DNA of 6,588 nucleotides from the IMG/VR virus record IMGVR_UViG_2548876940_000021, positions 1-6,588 of that record; one strand, 5' to 3'. This document shows positions 1-6,588 of the stretch, in pieces (the first letter of the stretch is position 1; each line of letters starts with the position of its first letter). The position numbers and the translations under genes were made by a program. Origin of the DNA: a virus. Lineage: Duplodnaviria; Heunggongvirae; Uroviricota; Caudoviricetes. The notes under the pieces were generated by a model, which worked only from the letters and a program-made list of their open reading frames with translations, was not told the DNA's origin and ran no database searches.

Positions 1-135
1 ATGATGCACTTTCAGCTCGCGGGTAGCGGCGTCATGTCCGCTTTCTACCCGCACGAATCTGAATTATCACGCCGAGTTAAACAATTAATCAGAGCAGCAA
101 AGAAACAACTGGAGGCGTTATGCGCAATGAAATAG
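1..135 (+). CDS. cIII-like small protein (FtsH/HflB protease inhibitor family), 44 aa; may extend upstream of the window
   Basis: Stop-free frame from position 1 (ATG ATG) to TAG at 133-135. The translation MMHFQLAGSGVMSAFYPHESELSRRVKQLIRAAKKQLEALCAMK resembles the lambda cIII core as I recall it (..AIAG.PVAG.PSESLLERITRKLRDGWKRLIDIL). Resemblance is from memory, not a search. Confidence 0.5.
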   Translation: MMHFQLAGSGVMSAFYPHESELSRRVKQLIRAAKKQLEALCAMK

Positions 136-272
136 CCATCAATCACCAGATGCTTCGAGCAGCACAAAACAAAGCAGTAATAGCCAGATTTATTGGTGAT
201 TCCAAAATGTGGCTTGAAGCAAATAAAGCGATGAAATCAGCTATCAACCTTCCGTGGTATCGCAGGAAATGA
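120..272 (+). CDS. Kil-like small protein (lambda Kil family, host cell-division inhibitor), 50 aa
   Basis: GGAGG at 111-115 followed by ATG at 120; overlaps the cIII-like ORF by 16 nt. The translation contains AVIARFIGDSKMWLEANKAMK, which resembles the lambda Kil motif I recall (ATFIGDEKMFREA..). Its position after cIII matches lambda gene order. Below the 60-aa cutoff of the ORF track. Confidence 0.45.
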   Translation: MRNEIAINHQMLRAAQNKAVIARFIGDSKMWLEANKAMKSAINLPWYRRK

Positions 273-376
273 GTTTTACAGATAACTGGTCAGACGAAGA
301 ATTCATTCGTCAGATGAAAGAAATGCTCAATCAGCATAAAGAACAGGAGAAAGATGATGATTCTGACTCTGAATGA
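269..376 (+). CDS. Small acidic hypothetical protein, 35 aa
   Basis: ATG at 269-271 overlaps the upstream TGA at 270-272 (ATGA coupling). Translation MSFTDNWSDEEFIRQMKEMLNQHKEQEKDDDSDSE has an acidic tail. Support is positional only. Confidence 0.3.
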   Translation: MSFTDNWSDEEFIRQMKEMLNQHKEQEKDDDSDSE

Positions 377-665
377 TAAGCGTGAAATATCGCAAATCAT
401 CGCAAGTTTTACCGATGAAGATTACGAGCGAATCAACAGTGAAGTTGATCGCCTCTGCAAACGTTGCGACCCAATAAGCGAAATGCTTCGCTCATATAAA
501 CCAGATGAACACACTAAGGACGCTATCGACTGGCTGGAAGATGATGACTGTAACTATCAGGAAAAAGCCGCTGAATGGTTCTGGGATGCAATAACCGAAA
601 GAGTTAAGGCTGAATATGCCTTCGCAATATTCAAACGCAGACATATTTATGGAGAAGCTGCATGA
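354..665 (+). CDS. Hypothetical phage early protein, 103 aa, at the position held by gam in lambda
   Basis: ORF with AGGAG at 345-349 and ATG at 354 or 357. Its stop TGA (663-665) overlaps the recT ATG (662-664). I see no recognisable similarity to lambda Gam. Confidence 0.6.
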   Translation: MMILTLNDKREISQIIASFTDEDYERINSEVDRLCKRCDPISEMLRSYKPDEHTKDAIDWLEDDDCNYQEKAAEWFWDAITERVKAEYAFAIFKRRHIYGEAA

Positions 666-1573
666 GCAATATCGTTGAATTCGTTAAACAGCAAGAGCAG
701 TTATTCTGCGGAGCATTGACTGAACAGACGGTGACATGGGCTAAGGAAAGCCAGTTTGCAATTCAGTATTTCCAGAAAAACGATTACCTGGCTAAAACGG
801 CACTGGCAAATCCAACCAGCGCACAGAACGCCATCATCAATGTTGCGGCGATCGGCATCACCTTAAACCCGGCCAGCAAACTGGCTTATCTGGTTCCGCG
901 CGACGGCATGGTGTGCCTTGATATCAGTTATATGGGATTGCTCCATATTGCAATGGAGTCTGGTGTTATCTCATGGGGTCAGGCAAAACTTGTTCATGCT
1001 AACGATACCTATGAGTCAAACGGGCTTGATAAAGCACCAACCCATAAATACAACGCCTTCGGTGATCGTGGTGATATCGTTGGCGTTTACTGCACAGTTA
1101 AGACGCCAGCAGGTGATTATCTAACGGAAGAGATGAGTCTGGCTGAAATTGAGGCTGTAAGGAAAACAAGCAAGGCGGCATTCAGCGATAAAGGACCATG
1201 GGTAAATCACTGGAATGAGATGGCGCGAAAGACGGTCGTAAAGCGTGCAAGCAAGTATTGGCCTAAGGCATCACGTCTTGATAGTGCTATTCACGTACTA
1301 AACGAAGAAGAAGGTGTGTGGACTGAACCAGTTATGCCGCACAAATCAGAGGAAGATATCCGCGAAGATGAACGGAAACGCCAGCAGGAAATAACGGATA
1401 AAGCACAACTTCTTTGTGATGAAATGGCTCATGCTGAAAACATGGATGATTTGAAGCGATATTTTGCAGAAGCATATCGCCTGACATCTGGAATGAAATT
1501 GCAGCAGAACGTACAAGCCATTTACGCAGAATGCAAAGCGAAACTGGAGGTTGCCAGTGAGCAAACTGTATGA
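662..1573 (+). CDS. recT: RecT-family single-strand annealing protein (Bet/RecT recombinase), 303 aa
   Basis: GGAG at 651-654 then ATG at 662. The segment GPWVNHWNEMARKTVVKRASKYWP matches the conserved RecT motif (Rac RecT GPWVTHWEEMAKKTAIRRLFKYLP, recalled). Size and operon position are appropriate. Confidence 0.9.
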   Translation: MSNIVEFVKQQEQLFCGALTEQTVTWAKESQFAIQYFQKNDYLAKTALANPTSAQNAIINVAAIGITLNPASKLAYLVPRDGMVCLDISYMGLLHIAMESGVISWGQAKLVHANDTYESNGLDKAPTHKYNAFGDRGDIVGVYCTVKTPAGDYLTEEMSLAEIEAVRKTSKAAFSDKGPWVNHWNEMARKTVVKRASKYWPKASRLDSAIHVLNEEEGVWTEPVMPHKSEEDIREDERKRQQEITDKAQLLCDEMAHAENMDDLKRYFAEAYRLTSGMKLQQNVQAIYAECKAKLEVASEQTV

Positions 1574-2039
1574 AATTGCCAATGAATACGCAAAATTGAT
1601 GGATTCAGATTTAGAACCAGAGATGATTGCTGACACAATAGAAGGCATGGAAGGAGAATTTACCGATAAAATAGAGCAACTTCTTTCCGTCATTAAAAAT
1701 GAATCTGGTTATGCCGAACGCCTCAAGGAAGAGGCAAAGTCACTGAATGAGCGAGCCGCAGTAATTCAAAATAAGATTGACAGCATTATGGCGTATATAG
1801 CGTCATCGCTTGAAATGGTTGGCAAGAAAAAGATTCGAGCAGGTATTCACCAGGTAACAATCCGCAAACCGTCAGAAACTGTAGAAATCATCGACTCAAG
1901 CGCCCTTCCTCCTGAATACGTTGAGTTTGAAACGACAATTAAAGCCGACAAACTGGCAATCAAACACCAACTAAAAGCAGGAATAAATATCCCCGGCGCT
2001 CAACTCAAAGTTGGGAAACCTTCACTTCTTATCAAATAA
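1557..2039 (+). CDS. Gp157-family phage protein (Sipho_Gp157-like), about 160 aa
   Basis: GGAGG at 1546-1550 then GTG at 1557 gives an N-terminus MSKLYEIANEYAKL, the characteristic MSKLYEL..Y start of Gp157-family proteins, followed by a coiled-coil-like region. It overlaps the recT 3' end. The ORF track's TTG at 1551 is in the same frame. Confidence 0.75.
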   Translation: MSKLYEIANEYAKLMDSDLEPEMIADTIEGMEGEFTDKIEQLLSVIKNESGYAERLKEEAKSLNERAAVIQNKIDSIMAYIASSLEMVGKKKIRAGIHQVTIRKPSETVEIIDSSALPPEYVEFETTIKADKLAIKHQLKAGINIPGAQLKVGKPSLLIK

Positions 2040-2050
2040 CGGTATCGACT

Positions 2051-2365
2051 ATGAAAAAGACTCCATGGGAGAAATGGGAAGTCGATTTCTTGCGCGAAGT
2101 ATCGGCGACAATGCCAGTTGAAGTTATCGCTGAAAAACTGGAAAGGACTGAAAAAGCAGTAATGGCGAAAGCAACAAGGATTGGTGCTGACATTGTTAGT
2201 CGACTTCGTGGAAGACGCTGGACAAGAGCCGAAGTATCACTTTTCGGTAAGTTCTCCGCAGAAGAAATAGCAATTGCAACCTGCCGCTCAATTTATTCAG
2301 TAAGGGCTATGCGATACAAGCTAAAAAAACTCGATGAAGAAAGAGCGGGCATACGAATAAATTAA
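2051..2365 (+). CDS. Small putative DNA-binding protein with two tandem HTH-like repeats (sigma-70 region 4 / Myb-like), 104 aa
   Basis: Two internal repeats of about 40 aa: [40 protein letters not shown] and [40 protein letters not shown]. Each carries an EIA..L..S/T...V-type recognition-helix pattern. Confidence 0.6.
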
Positions 2366-2381
2366 CAAAGAGGAATTTACC

Positions 2382-2549
2382 ATGAGAGGGCTTGCATACA
2401 ATCCCGGCATTCTTCCGGCAGAAATGATTATTCGCCAACGCGTAAAGCCAATGCCATCGAGAGAGGAATTGCTTAAGAGAAATTCTTTTCCGTCAGTAAA
2501 TCAAAACAAATATCTGAATGCGATGTGGCGCAAAGGAGGCAAGCAGTGA
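2382..2549 (+). CDS. Small hypothetical protein, 55 aa
   Basis: AGAGGA at 2369-2374 then ATG at 2382. Its stop TGA (2547-2549) overlaps the GTG start of the next gene (GTGA). Below the ORF-track cutoff. Confidence 0.45.
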
Positions 2550-2845
2550 GTGTATATCTTATTGATAAACGTCGACGTGGGCAACAAATACCACCTGTAG
2601 GAATTCCGAATCACACATGGTTTTGCGTACTTGATATCGATGGTATGGATGCGTTGGTTGACACTCGTCATTACTGCGATACCGCAACAGCTACTCCGGC
2701 GAAAGCAAAGAAAATGGCTGCTCTGATAGAAAACTGGACTCCACCTGATGGTTGGTGCAATGGGAATGATCGAGATTGGCATGAAAAAATGAAGGGCTAT
2801 ATCTGCGATTTCTTACGTAAATGCAACGGCTTCAGGGTGATGTGA
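2546..2845 (+). CDS. Hypothetical Cys/His-containing phage protein, 99 aa
   Basis: AGGAGG at 2534-2539 then GTG at 2546 six nt downstream. The ORF-track start at 2525 is the same frame, but 2546 has the better ribosome-binding site. Several Cys and His residues suggest possible metal binding. Confidence 0.6.
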
Positions 2846-2846
2846 C

Positions 2847-3485
2847 ATGAACAAGATTGACTATCAGGCACTGCGTGAAGCGGCAGAAAAAGCAACGTGT
2901 GGTGTGTGGTCGCTCGAATATGGAGAGGAGAGATTTGATGCTGGTGATGCGCTAATTCATCGTGACGTTGTTGGATATCTTCCCATTTGCAGAATTGAAG
3001 GAGCGCATCCAGAAAGCGGTTTCGATGAAGATTTCCAAATAGAACAGCAGGCCAATGCTGAATTCATCGCCGCAGCCAATCCGGCTACCGTCTTGGCGCT
3101 GCTTGGCGAGCTGGAAGCAGCAAAAAAGCGCATAGCAGAACTGGAAGCCGAACCTGTAAGCCAAACTTGCAAGTTGAACGAGCCATCGGGCAACTCTCCG
3201 GTAACTCCGGATGGTTGGATAAGCTGTAGTGAGCAGATGCCTGTAATCGGCGAGCTAAATTGGAGAACTAGTTTTCCTTTACTGGTTACGTGTGAGATCG
3301 GCGTTATACCTGCTTATTACGGCTTTGTGAGCGTTAATGGTGATAGGCATTATGGCTTTATGGAGAGTCTTAAATACGGAGACGATAACGGCAACCATCC
3401 TCAAACTAATGAATATGGTCTGATTAGCAATGTCACACACTGGATGCCTCTACCAGAACCGCCTCAGGAGGTTAACCGTGGCTAA
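2847..3485 (+). CDS. Ead/Ea22-like family protein with C-terminal DUF551-like domain, 212 aa
   Basis: N-terminus MNKIDYQALREAAEKAT..ANAEFIAAANPATVLALLGELEAAKKRIAELEA is typical of the Ead/Ea22-like N-region. The C-terminus ends ..VTHWMPLPEPPQ, the hallmark end of DUF551 proteins in enterobacterial prophages. Confidence 0.8.
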   Translation: MNKIDYQALREAAEKATCGVWSLEYGEERFDAGDALIHRDVVGYLPICRIEGAHPESGFDEDFQIEQQANAEFIAAANPATVLALLGELEAAKKRIAELEAEPVSQTCKLNEPSGNSPVTPDGWISCSEQMPVIGELNWRTSFPLLVTCEIGVIPAYYGFVSVNGDRHYGFMESLKYGDDNGNHPQTNEYGLISNVTHWMPLPEPPQEVNRG

Positions 3486-3759
3486 TCTGCAGCTTGCCGT
3501 TAAAGGTGAATACTTCGATGCCATGATTCGCGGTGAGAAAACGGAAGAGTATCGCTTGTGTAATGACTACTGGAATAAGCGAATTATGTTCCGGGAGTAT
3601 GACCGCCTGATTATCACAAAGGGATATCCGAAGCGCGACGACTTCAGTCGCAGAATTGATGTTCCGTATGACGGATATGAAATCAAGACAATCACACATC
3701 CCCACTTCGGCGATAAACCGGTAAAGGTGTTCGCGATAAAGGTGAATATCAATTGCTAA
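3478..3759 (+). CDS. ASCH/PUA-like domain protein, 93 aa
   Basis: AGGAGG at 3466-3471 then GTG at 3478, overlapping the upstream stop. The N-terminal motif LAVKGEYFDAMIRGEKTEEYR fits the ASCH GxKxxExR signature. The ORF-track start at 3430 would overlap the previous gene by 56 nt and is less likely. Confidence 0.65.
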   Translation: MANLQLAVKGEYFDAMIRGEKTEEYRLCNDYWNKRIMFREYDRLIITKGYPKRDDFSRRIDVPYDGYEIKTITHPHFGDKPVKVFAIKVNINC

Positions 3760-3783
3760 ATTAGTAGCATAGCATAAAGATGC

Positions 3784-3807
3784 TTGCATTAATGAAGTGT
3801 GTATAAT
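3784..3807 (+). promoter_or_regulatory. Candidate sigma-70 promoter for the AT-rich cassette (consensus -10 TATAAT at 3802-3807; weak -35)
   Basis: A perfect TATAAT sits about 65 nt upstream of the 63-aa ORF in AT-rich DNA. TTGCAT at 3784-3789 is only 12 nt upstream, which is suboptimal spacing, and hexamers at 16-18 nt spacing are poor. Confidence 0.3.
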
Positions 3808-3871
3808 AACGCCTCATCAATAGTAAACTACTGAAATAGCAAAAAAATGCATATTAAAGAGGATTCGAAAA

Positions 3872-4063
3872 TTGAAAATGTTCATGCAAATAGACAGACG
3901 CATAGATATTAATGGCAATTCATACTTAGTTAGATGCGAAGAGAGGCCTAACGGTGAGTGGCGTGTATATGATATTGACCGTAAGATCAATATCAGCACC
4001 ATGAACAAAGACACTGCCTTTGATGAATGGAAAGCTGAAGCTAAAAAACAACATAATTCGTAG
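3872..4063 (+). CDS. Hypothetical small protein in an AT-rich moron-like insertion, 63 aa
   Basis: ORF with AAAGAGGA at 3856-3863. Start is TTG at 3872, or ATG at 3878 or 3884 in the same frame. Translation MKMFMQIDRRIDINGNSYLVRCEERPNGEWRVYDIDRKINISTMNKDTAFDEWKAEAKKQHNS. The surrounding DNA is clearly more AT-rich than neighbouring genes, and a terminator follows. Confidence 0.5.
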   Translation: MKMFMQIDRRIDINGNSYLVRCEERPNGEWRVYDIDRKINISTMNKDTAFDEWKAEAKKQHNS

Positions 4064-4106
4064 AATTACAAAAACCCTAACCAATTGATGGTTTTCTTTT
4101 ATCTGA

Positions 4107-4130
4107 ACTCGCTACGGCGAGTTTTGTTTT
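4107..4130 (+). terminator. Rho-independent terminator-like hairpin plus T-tract
   Basis: Stem ACTCGC (4107-4112), loop TACG, stem GCGAGT (4117-4122), then TTTGTTTT (4123-4130). It lies 44 nt after the 63-aa ORF stop and directly before the ribosome-binding site of the 114-aa gene. Confidence 0.55.
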
Positions 4131-4143
4131 ATGGAGACAAGAA

Positions 4144-4488
4144 ATGTCAGATTTGGCTATGAAGGTTTTGAAATGGCAATCGACTGGCGATGTAGGCATC
4201 AGTAGCGCAACTCTTGCCTCAATCGCATGTGGACTGAAAAAGAATATCTATGGTCATAGCTTCGGTGCTCCACATGACGCAGCCGATTTCCGACGATGCG
4301 TTGCACTTGTTGAGCAGATTCCAGAAATCAGAGATTCATTCGACAAGGTTGCAAAGCGCGTTCCGGCATTCAAAGGCATCCTCAACGAATGGGATTCACT
4401 CGTTGCTCTGTTGAAGTCTGAAATGAAGACGTATGGGAACAAAGCACCAGAGACTTACAGAAGAATCAGCGAGCTACGCAAGGACTAA
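4144..4488 (+). CDS. Hypothetical phage protein, 114 aa
   Basis: GGAG at 4133-4136 then ATG at 4144. Clean ORF with ordinary composition and no family I can recognise. Terminator-like hairpins lie on both sides. Confidence 0.65.
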   Translation: MSDLAMKVLKWQSTGDVGISSATLASIACGLKKNIYGHSFGAPHDAADFRRCVALVEQIPEIRDSFDKVAKRVPAFKGILNEWDSLVALLKSEMKTYGNKAPETYRRISELRKD

Positions 4489-4545
4489 CCCACCTCACAC
4501 TCGATGAGGCCTGTTCATTGCTCAATGATATCCAGACCTACCATC

Positions 4546-4569
4546 GCCGCATCAATGCGGCTTTTTCTT
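4546..4569 (+). terminator. Rho-independent terminator-like hairpin plus T-tract
   Basis: GCCGC (4546-4550), loop ATCAAT, GCGGC (4557-4561), then TTTTTCTT (4562-4569). It lies 58 nt after the 114-aa ORF stop. Confidence 0.55.
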
Positions 4570-4611
4570 GCCTGATTTGCAGGTTCGATTCCCTATTCGG
4601 AGATAGCACTC

Positions 4612-4812
4612 ATGCAACACGAACTACAACCTGATTCACTGGTTGATTTGAAATTCATCATGGCCGATACTGGCTTCGGTAAAACCTTCATCTATGACCG
4701 GATTAAGTCCGGCGACCTGCCAAAAGCCAAAGTTATCCACGGGCGAGCAAGATGGTTATATCGTGACCATTGTGAATTCAAAAATAAGCTCTTAAGCCGC
4801 GCCAATGGGTAA
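4612..4812 (+). CDS. AlpA-family / excisionase-like HTH regulatory protein (Xis candidate), 66 aa
   Basis: GGAG at 4599-4602 then ATG at 4612. The translation LVDLKFIMADTGFGKTFIYDRIKSGDLPKAKVIHGRARWLYRDHCEFKNKLL follows the AlpA/Xis HTH pattern (..tG.s..tiY.li..G.fP.p.k.g.r..W...ev..w). It is the last gene of the + strand operon. Confidence 0.75.
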   Translation: MQHELQPDSLVDLKFIMADTGFGKTFIYDRIKSGDLPKAKVIHGRARWLYRDHCEFKNKLLSRANG

Positions 4813-4828
4813 AATAGCGGGTAAAATA
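4807..4828 (+). repeat. Tandem direct repeat GGGTAAAATA x2 (period 12) spanning the AlpA-like stop codon
   Basis: Read directly: GGGTAAAATA at 4807-4816 and again at 4819-4828, separated by GC. This is where recombinase arm-type or regulator binding sites might be expected. Confidence 0.6.
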
Positions 4829-4861
4829 TTTCTCACATCTAAAAAACTCCATTCCAATCAA

Positions 4862-4895
4862 TCCCCTGCCGCTTCAAGTAGATGTCTGCAGGGGA
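4862..4895. repeat. Perfect 8-bp inverted repeat TCCCCTGC / GCAGGGGA with an 18-nt spacer
   Basis: Read directly: 4862-4869 and 4888-4895 are reverse complements. No T-tract follows, so it looks more like a protein-binding or recombination site than a terminator. Confidence 0.55.
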
Positions 4896-5288
4896 CACCA
4901 GATACCCTTCAAACGAAATCTACCTTCACCCCGTAAAAGATAGGTTTGGCAGCACACTTGCCTTATATCTACTCATTTTTACTGCAACAGGTTGAAATCT
5001 CAGCACTGTCAGAAAGCGCTGATGACTAAACAGCCCTGGGCCGGGCGATGTAACCATCACACAGAATCCTGATAGCGAAATATGGCGTGACTCGATACTT
5101 CACTCCGCAATGCATTCCTTGATGAATTCGCAGGACCGTGATACACGGGACAGGTCGCTGAATGACGACAATGTCCTGGAAATCAGCGAACCGCGCATCT
5201 GAAGTACATTTGAGCGACTGTACCAGAACATGAATGAGGCGTTTGGATTAGGTGATTATTAGCAGGGCTAAGCACTTTAGTATTATTA

Positions 5289-5332
5289 TTTTCCGGTTGA
5301 GGGATAGGGAGATATCGACAACAACCGGAAAA
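5289..5332. repeat. Perfect 11-bp inverted repeat TTTTCCGGTTG / CAACCGGAAAA with a 22-nt spacer, 9 nt beyond the MFS gene stop; possible terminator or junction element
   Basis: Read directly: 5289-5299 and 5322-5332 are reverse complements. It sits between convergent transcription units, and neither strand has a clean U-tract after it. Confidence 0.45.
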
Positions 5333-5340
5333 GTTTACGT

Positions 5341-6588
5341 CTATATTGCTGAAGGTACAGGCGTTTCCATAACTATTTGCTCGCGTTTTTTACTCAGGAA
5401 GAAAATGCCAAATAGCAACATCAGGCAGACAATACCCGAAATTGCGAAGAAAACTGTCTGGTAGCCTGCGTGGTCAAAGAGTATCCCAGTCGGCGTTGAA
5501 AGCAGCACAATCCCAAGCGAACTGGCAATTTGAAAACCAATCAGAAAGATCGTCGACGACAGGCGCTTATCAAAATTTGCCACGCTGTATTTGAAGACGG
5601 ATATGACACAAAGTGGAACCTCAATAGCATGTAACAGCTTCACTAATGAAATAATCCAGGGGTTAACGAACAGCGCGCAGGAAAGGATACGCAACGCCAT
5701 AATCACAACACCGATAAGTAATGCATTTTTTGGCCCTACCCGATTCACAAAGAAAGGAATAATCGCCATGCATAGCGCTTCGAGTACCACCTGGAATGAG
5801 TTGAGATAACCATACAGGCGCGTTCCTACATCGTGTGATTCGAATAAACCTGCATAAAAGACAGGAAAAAGTTGTTGATCAAAAATGTTATAGAAAGACC
5901 ACGTCCCCACAATAAATATGACGAAAACCCAGAAGTTTCGATCCTTGAAAACTGCGATAAAATCCTCTTTTTTTACCCCTCCCGCATCCGCCGCTACGCA
6001 CTGGTGATCCTTATCTTTAAAACACATGTTGATCATCATAAATACAGCGCCAAATAGCGAGACCAACCAGAAGTTGATATGGGGACTGATACTAAAAAAT
6101 ATGCCGGCAAAGAACGCGCCAATAGCATAGCCAAAAGATCCCCAGGCGCGCGCTGTTCCATATTCGAAATGAAAATTTCGCGCCATTTTTTCGGTGAAGC
6201 TGTCAAGCAAACCGCATCCCGCCAGATACCCCAGGCCAAAAAAGAGCGCCCCCAGAATTAGACCTACAGAAAAATTGCTTTGCAGTAACGGTTCATAAAC
6301 GTAAATCATAAACGGTCCGGTCAAGACCAGGATGAAACTCATACACCAGATGAGCGGTTTCTTCAGACCGAGTTTATCCTGAACGATGCCGTAGAACATC
6401 ATAAATAGAATGCTGGTAAACTGGTTGACCGAATAAAGTGTACCTAATTCCGTCCCTGTCAACCCTAGATGTCCTTTCAGCCAAATAGCGTATAACGACC
6501 ACCACAGCGACCAGGAAATAAAAAAGAGAAATGAGTAACTGGATGCAAAACGATAGTACGCATTTCTGAATGGAATATTCAGTGCCAT
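5341..6588 (-). CDS. MFS transporter, LacY-like oligosaccharide:H+ symporter family, 415 aa
   Basis: Long minus-strand ORF whose ATG is the last three bases of the window. The translation is hydrophobic throughout with about 12 predicted membrane spans. Motifs match LacY as recalled: GIVQDKLGLKKPLIW against LacY GLLSDKLGLRKYLLW, and FNIFDQQ...GTRLYGY...NRVGPKNALL against LacY YDVFDQQ...GTRVFGY...NRIGGKNALL. Confidence 0.85.
   Translation of the reverse strand: MALNIPFRNAYYRFASSYSFLFFISWSLWWSLYAIWLKGHLGLTGTELGTLYSVNQFTSILFMMFYGIVQDKLGLKKPLIWCMSFILVLTGPFMIYVYEPLLQSNFSVGLILGALFFGLGYLAGCGLLDSFTEKMARNFHFEYGTARAWGSFGYAIGAFFAGIFFSISPHINFWLVSLFGAVFMMINMCFKDKDHQCVAADAGGVKKEDFIAVFKDRNFWVFVIFIVGTWSFYNIFDQQLFPVFYAGLFESHDVGTRLYGYLNSFQVVLEALCMAIIPFFVNRVGPKNALLIGVVIMALRILSCALFVNPWIISLVKLLHAIEVPLCVISVFKYSVANFDKRLSSTIFLIGFQIASSLGIVLLSTPTGILFDHAGYQTVFFAISGIVCLMLLFGIFFLSKKREQIVMETPVPSAI

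Follow-up and report, generated by a model that had tools for sequence, protein, structure and literature searches.

The window analyzed here is a 6,588-nucleotide stretch of Caudoviricetes DNA (positions 1 to 6,588 of IMG/VR record IMGVR_UViG_2548876940_000021), and the subject of the analysis is its 103-amino acid (aa) open reading frame (ORF) upstream of recT. The best reading of this protein family is a third, so far unannotated sequence type of host-nuclease inhibitor with the fold of lambda Gam, its function being deduced by comparison. The 103-aa protein is most likely a very divergent relative of Gam, and it most likely inhibits RecBCD by mimicking DNA at the RecB arm, a function to which we assign a probability of about 0.6. 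The relation to Gam is drawn from three independent lines of evidence: Gam is the top structural match, a collinear motif lies in the segment that contacts RecB, and the gene exchanges with gam in the same genomic slot.

354 to 665, plus strand: 103-aa ORF matching PHROG 3486; acidic, all-helical protein with a predicted Gam-like fold, a candidate host-nuclease (RecBCD) inhibitor.

[quoted passage not shown] AlphaFold2, supplied with a 38-sequence alignment, produced a confident all-helical model of the 103-aa protein (predicted local distance difference test score, pLDDT, 91.1; predicted template modeling score, pTM, 0.77) with helices at residues 6-17, 21-35, 40-47, 54-64, and 66-102. The AlphaFold2 model of GamS has a pLDDT of just 75 and was used for helix boundaries only, which fall at residues 2-37, 41-54, 59-68, and 70-97. 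The helix boundaries of the two models place the proteins in collinear register; proline 40 opens helix 2 (H2) in both, and the break between H3 and H4 occurs at an acidic triplet. Foldseek searches of the PDB and BFVD with the 103-aa model returned no significant match, and five GamS chains are among the 44 weak PDB matches. The predicted model has the GamS arrangement of an N-terminal helix followed by three further helices, its top structural match is Gam, and the structural alignment of the two proteins has about 16% identity. The fold of the 103-aa protein is thus predicted with fair assurance to be Gam-like. Two features distinguish the model from GamS. H1 of the 103-aa family is split at residues 18-20 into a two-helix hairpin, whereas the H1 plug of GamS is a single long helix, and the final helix of the 103-aa protein is about 9 residues longer. 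The split N-terminal helix may signify a mechanistic difference in which the channel plug of Gam is absent. The predictions are of a single chain, and for the 103-aa protein we infer homodimer formation, RecBCD binding, and inhibition.

The Gam families PF06064 and PHROG 259 are not among the hidden Markov model (HMM) matches of the 103-aa ORF (Pfam at E ≤ 0.1 and the PHROG scan), ten distant family members have no PF06064 match, and Gam is not retrieved at E ≤ 10 when the family profile is compared with PDB sequences. An hhalign comparison of the family with a Gam alignment gives one collinear local match that pairs residues 37-77 with GamS 37-81. The score of 25.6 (P of about 5e-4, probability 29-32% within an overall range of 17-32%) is suggestive and lies below the usual acceptance level. 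Column-shuffled Gam profiles (n = 200) score 11.6 ± 2.3 with a maximum of 21.0, and 0/200 reach 25.6. The core of the match is retained with a 72-member profile (residues 54-80 to 58-84, P = 1.4e-3), which scores 22.0 compared with 11.1 ± 2.2 for shuffled profiles (maximum 18.6), a value again reached by 0/200. Reversed profiles score 8-9. Global hhalign alignments of the N-terminal 36 residues with Gam are unstable and of low confidence, and a correspondence of D8 and E11 with Gam D48 and E51 was not used as evidence because the alignment of this region is unreliable.

The conserved part of the match contains the following motif.

540 to 575 (codons 63-74), plus strand: motif shared with Gam by hhalign, DDDCNYQEKAAE here and DDDVEFQERMAE in Gam D107-E118 (full-length numbering 107-118).

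Gam residues D107, E111, E114, and E118 form ion pairs with RecB K268, K288, R297, and R255/K256, respectively (Table 1 of Wilkinson et al. 2022, PMC9836394). The corresponding columns hold D63, N67, E70, and E74 in the window protein, three of the four being acidic, and columns 63, 67, 70, and 74 are acidic in 47, 56, 82, and 58% of the 72 family members. Q69, which aligns with Gam Q113, is present in 66/72 members and is preceded by an aromatic residue in 63/72. The overall charge is similar: the window protein has an isoelectric point (pI) of 4.65 and a net charge of -9, the family ranges from -5 to -13, and GamS has a pI of 4.99 and a net charge of -10. The sequence-only reading had suggested a non-homologous functional analog as a possibility in this position. 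Profile and structure comparison with Gam yields a weak collinear hhalign match and a Gam-like predicted fold together with no match to a curated Gam HMM, and the fold and collinear motif make a remote Gam homologue the most likely identity instead.

Three related loci show how the gene is exchanged. Homology between the window and phage Dewey, a close relative, breaks off where kil ends (window 275) and picks up again at the start of recT (window 660), the flanks being 88% (kil) and 97% (recT-gp157) identical. Window positions 276-659 are replaced in Dewey by an 80-aa ORF and a canonical Gam gene (PHROG 259, E = 1.2e-50). In SEN22, the 269-665 block is retained at 96.5% identity and is followed by a RecE-like nuclease and a 189-aa protein instead of recT and gp157, with homology resuming at window 2051. 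In HK639, the slot before RecT and Gp157 is taken by a phi80-type GamL. Based on these exchanges and the varied partners found in the 101 loci described below, the 103-aa gene is an independent cassette that heads recombination modules, is exchangeable with gam, and is not bound to one recombinase. The assignment of the gene to a nuclease-inhibitor slot, originally positional, is strengthened by this recombinase independence, by the gam gene of Dewey in the slot, by the Gam-like predicted fold, and by the weak collinear match to the RecB-contacting part of Gam.

In the proposed mechanism, the first gene of the early-left recombination module would encode a small acidic four-helix protein with a Gam-like action. 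The protein would dock on host RecBCD where DNA ends bind, mainly on the RecB arm, through an acidic surface that would include the conserved D-D-x-[DN]-[YFW]-Q-[ED]-x3-E segment where H3 meets H4. RecBCD would thereby be kept off the linear ends and recombination intermediates of phage DNA during the action of RecT and its partner. A doubtful variant of this mechanism is that the family keeps the RecB-arm-mimicking core and replaces the H1 plug with the compact hairpin predicted by the model, differing from Gam in mode of action or in target and constituting an uncounted anti-nuclease function in HK140- and SEN22-type modules. Such a protein might block only duplex-end binding, or might engage SbcCD or an immune system that guards RecBCD.

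A Gam-fold DNA mimic could also be aimed mainly at a host DNA-end or defense protein other than RecBCD, such as SbcCD or an immune sensor or effector. The protein has the Gam-like fold and charge, yet a hairpin replaces the N-terminal plug helix, the acidic positions that contact RecB are only partly conserved, and the Gp157 protein of the module could supply end protection. Gam itself is reported to interact with SbcCD (PMC5218532), and the recombination-related early-left locus has been called a hotspot for anti-immunity genes and a likely reservoir of new RecBCD inhibitors (bioRxiv 10.64898/2026.07.10.737580). Another main target is nevertheless unlikely. The best-conserved segment shared with Gam is precisely where Gam touches the RecB arm, and canonical gam takes the slot beside the same recT and gp157 genes.

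The genes downstream of the family were surveyed in 101 loci, which were classed by tblastn against reference proteins; related loci were retrieved with a 9-member family alignment. RecT and Gp157 follow the 103-aa gene in 89/101 loci, the window included. The other loci have RecT with YqaJ, RecT with a lambda Exo-like protein, a 167-aa unknown protein with YqaJ, or RecE-like nucleases, one locus (L085) ends ahead of any downstream gene, and one further case is the degraded remnant described below. These module types are drawn from the 101 loci together with annotated or gene-called contexts. In none of the 101 loci does a tblastn match to the Gam, GamL, or Abc2 reference span half or more of that reference. 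In three loci from Salmonella enterica (5309..5602 of L008; also L009 and L010), a 97-aa Cys-rich ORF (CKCC...CSKSC) lies between the 103-aa gene and recT, and its start overlaps the upstream stop as ATGA. The coupling to recT proposed from the sequence alone is therefore present in the window as an ATGA overlap but is not a family-wide property, since a RecE-like nuclease, the 167-aa protein, or the 97-aa Cys-rich ORF may come next.

In most loci, the stop of the 103-aa gene overlaps the following start codon or lies directly next to it, and the gene is always within a recombination module. Both properties would suit an accessory factor of the phage recombination machinery comparable to P22 Arf or Abc1, made stoichiometrically with the downstream protein through translational coupling and aiding annealing or loading instead of inhibiting a host nuclease. 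The partner varies, however, among two RecT types, a RecE-like nuclease without a recognized annealing protein, the 167-aa protein, and the 97-aa Cys-rich ORF, which renders a specific protein-protein cofactor role unlikely. A RecT-specific cofactor role was downgraded on account of this variation among the 101 loci. Lambda gam is just as near bet, with a 5-nt gap, and the fold match is to Gam and not to a recombination mediator; an accessory role is accordingly quite improbable. A coincidental resemblance to Gam, by which the product would be an unrelated small helical protein (a regulator or host-takeover factor) in a variable slot of the early-left operon, is the least probable alternative given that three signals converge.

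Several components of the surveyed loci are observations in their own right. The ORF at 5312..6010 of locus L020 (Cedecea davisae), downstream of the 103-aa gene, starts like RecT and ends like the C terminus of a tyrosine recombinase (integrase-like), and flagellar-type genes adjoin it. This locus looks like a degraded or deleted prophage remnant that has retained the Gam-like gene. The 167-aa protein (PHROG 21613; 4300..4803 of L016) is encoded beside YqaJ and the 189-aa protein (PHROG 11517; 5130..5699 of L002) beside a RecE-like nuclease, both in positions where an annealing protein or a single-stranded DNA-binding protein is expected. The two are weakly alike (E = 0.0017) and may be unrecognized components of recombination modules.

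Residues 2-103 of the 103-aa ORF align with the whole PHROG 3486 profile ("unknown function"; positions 1-102 of 102, E = 1.7e-59). The PHROG scan gives this family plus a weak match to one unnamed family and nothing else, Pfam (E ≤ 0.1) and NCBIfam give zero matches, and Pfam, NCBIfam, and PDB-sequence profile searches return nothing for ten distant family members either. Phages HK140, mEpX1, Kapi1, Gally, Louie, and SEN22 carry identical or near-identical copies, and the gene is present in 268/5426 (about 5%) complete Escherichia coli genomes, labeled hypothetical throughout. A profile search run exhaustively over 1.8 billion cluster representatives finds only 64 proteins at E ≤ 0.001, 41 of them at E ≤ 1e-10. 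The convincing members are about 100 aa long, their identity falls to about 34%, and those that are named or located come from Enterobacterales and their phages. The ratio of nonsynonymous to synonymous substitution rates (dN/dS) is 0.04-0.23 among close copies, where substitutions are few and the differences mostly synonymous. The full-length PHROG 3486 match, the 64 proteins of the profile search, and the low dN/dS establish the 103-aa ORF as a genuine gene under purifying selection and not a chance ORF.

A C-terminal E-A-A (or E-V-A) is near-invariant in the family regardless of the next gene. In the window, the E-A-A tail coincides with the ribosome-binding site and start codon of the downstream gene, and its conservation may stem from translational coupling and not from the function of the protein. 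Formal significance with the family profile is also reached, in whole-protein scores, by large saposin, MIF4G, and HEAT repeat proteins of eukaryotic type (P0103, P0109, P0122, P0127, and P0128). These scores are sums of several weak matches, from under 5 to 17 bits each, at profile positions of about 9-68, and are probably a helical-repeat artifact. The matches contain a saposin-like pattern, EI..II..l.e.D..I..eV..lC..l.P, that the artifact reading leaves without explanation.

The window starts in the early-left (PL) operon of a lambdoid or P22-like prophage with the gene order cIII, kil, 35-aa ORF, 103-aa ORF, recT, and Sipho_Gp157. The features of the operon around the 103-aa ORF are as follows.

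1 to 135, plus strand: cIII (PF08134, E = 2e-30), with Kil the conserved left border of the slot.
120 to 272, plus strand: Kil (PF06301, E = 1.7e-20).
269 to 376, plus strand: 35-aa acidic ORF (PHROG 17766 and 2123), forming one mosaic block (269-665) with the 103-aa ORF, from blastn block boundaries against SEN22 and HK446.
345 to 349, plus strand: Shine-Dalgarno-like AGGAG, read from the sequence, upstream of the 103-aa ORF and within the 35-aa ORF.
651 to 665, plus strand: recT ribosome-binding site and ATGA stop/start overlap, read from the sequence, inside the last codons of the 103-aa ORF.
662 to 1573, plus strand: RecT-family single-strand annealing protein (PF03837, E = 2.8e-32; PHROG 148, E = 3.3e-92).
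1551 to 2039, plus strand: Sipho_Gp157 protein, the last gene of the recombination module (PF05565, E = 9.4e-37; PHROG 253, E = 7.2e-54).

The sequence-only reading had described the ORF at 354..665 on the plus strand preceded by cIII-like, Kil-like, and 35-aa acidic reading frames; the ORF is present exactly so, and the upstream order was found with Pfam support for cIII and Kil. The order cIII, kil, gam, bet that it gave for lambda agrees with the lambda record, where exo follows bet. Lambda gam thus heads the early-left recombination module after kil in the same way as the 103-aa gene. The stop codon of the 103-aa ORF (TGA, 663-665) overlaps the recT ATG (662-664), and the recT Shine-Dalgarno GGAG (651-654) falls in codons 100-101 of the ORF. 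Two adjacent ATG codons, at 354 and 357, could start the 103-aa ORF, and their spacings from AGGAG are 4 and 7 nt, respectively. The second Met (ATG 357) is where the alignment starts for most PHROG 3486 family members. The better AGGAG spacing and the agreement with most homologues favor ATG 357, which may be the true start and would give a 102-aa protein. A promoter and terminator scan of window positions 1-2500 gave no signal above chance and none interrupting the operon. Chi sites number 0 in the window, where the expectation is just 0.14.

Over its first 21 residues, the 35-aa ORF matches the beginning of HK446 gp33, a 56-aa protein of PHROG 2123 labeled "recombinase," and the ORF has a weak Arf match (E = 0.045). 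Nucleotide homology to HK446 stops at window 322, inside the ORF, and the 35-aa peptide is therefore a chimera or a truncation. In a 2026 preprint (bioRxiv 10.64898/2026.07.10.737580), Gp33 of HK75/HK446 is reported to set off P2 Old and to be a possible new manipulator of RecBCD. Sipho_Gp157 carries the PHROGs name "Mu Gam-like end protection," and its match to the Pfam Mu Gam family (PF07352) is weak (E = 0.007). Gp157 accompanies a canonical Gam in Dewey, GamL in HK639, and the 103-aa family in the window, so the functions of Gp157 and of Gam-type proteins are not mutually exclusive. The annotations of the next gene (2051..2365, plus strand, 104 aa) conflict: PHROGs lists a "transcriptional regulator, D5-like," its Gally counterpart is called "Anti-RecBCD protein 1 (Abc1-like)," and there is a borderline Pfam match to HTH_12. 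A TorI-type excisionase/regulator gene (4612..4812, plus strand) is followed by a host oligosaccharide transporter gene of the major facilitator superfamily (LacY-like; 5341..6588, minus strand), which should place the prophage-host junction between about 4812 and 5340. The window has no integrase gene and no tRNA gene.

GamL of phi80 and HK639 (PHROG 1050) is a different sequence type in the same slot before RecT and Gp157. The 103-aa ORF does not match PHROG 1050, and its identity with phi80 GamL was rejected on a BLASTP E of 5.2 and an hhalign P of about 0.5. HK639 GamL (2186..2470 of locus L013) resembles lambda Gam in the N-terminal half only (hhalign P = 4e-6, residues 1-57), and the first 11 residues are almost identical. 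The likeness of the 103-aa family to Gam is in the C-terminal half, and these opposite-half likenesses hint at modular evolution of Gam-fold proteins. RecBCD is likewise the target of two further small phage proteins, the inhibitors or modulators T7 gp5.9 and P22 Abc2. Of these, gp5.9 forms an acidic dimer that mimics DNA and attaches to the RecB arm (PMC9836394). The Abc2, Abc1, and Arf families have no match to the 103-aa ORF in the PHROG scan. Mu Gam and Sipho_Gp157, a member of which is encoded two genes downstream, belong to a separate fold family unrelated to the 103-aa ORF that binds DNA ends and not the nuclease; PMC12315714 counts the Gp157 member as the anti-RecBCD function of HK140-type modules.

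The most detailed survey of lambdoid Rec modules recognizes four anti-RecBCD types, Gam, GamL, Abc2, and MuGam, credits HK140 with MuGam only, and scores SEN22-type modules as having no anti-RecBCD gene and yet 0 Chi sites (PMC12315714). The 103-aa family goes unmentioned in that survey. The 0 Chi sites of the SEN22 type fit an unrecognized inhibitor, in a class of only 2 phages. Our literature search found no paper naming or testing the 103-aa family, and the BASEL paper has no defense-system data on Louie or Dewey.

A Gam-like gene in the Gam slot is not in itself surprising, and the value of the assignment lies in the gap in classification that it would fill and in a natural variant for dissecting the Gam mechanism. 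RecBCD inhibitors are required for recombineering with double-stranded DNA, potentiate quinolones (PMC5218532), and trigger systems that guard RecBCD such as retron Ec48 and P2 Old. If the assignment is correct, a function would be supplied for a gene that about 5% of complete E. coli genomes and the six named phages, from HK140 to SEN22, list as hypothetical, and the family would be the third sequence type among Gam-fold inhibitors. The classification of lambdoid modules would be revised for the HK140 type (MuGam only) and the SEN22 type (no anti-RecBCD gene), and the differing N terminus of the family would reveal which parts of Gam are needed for each of its effects.
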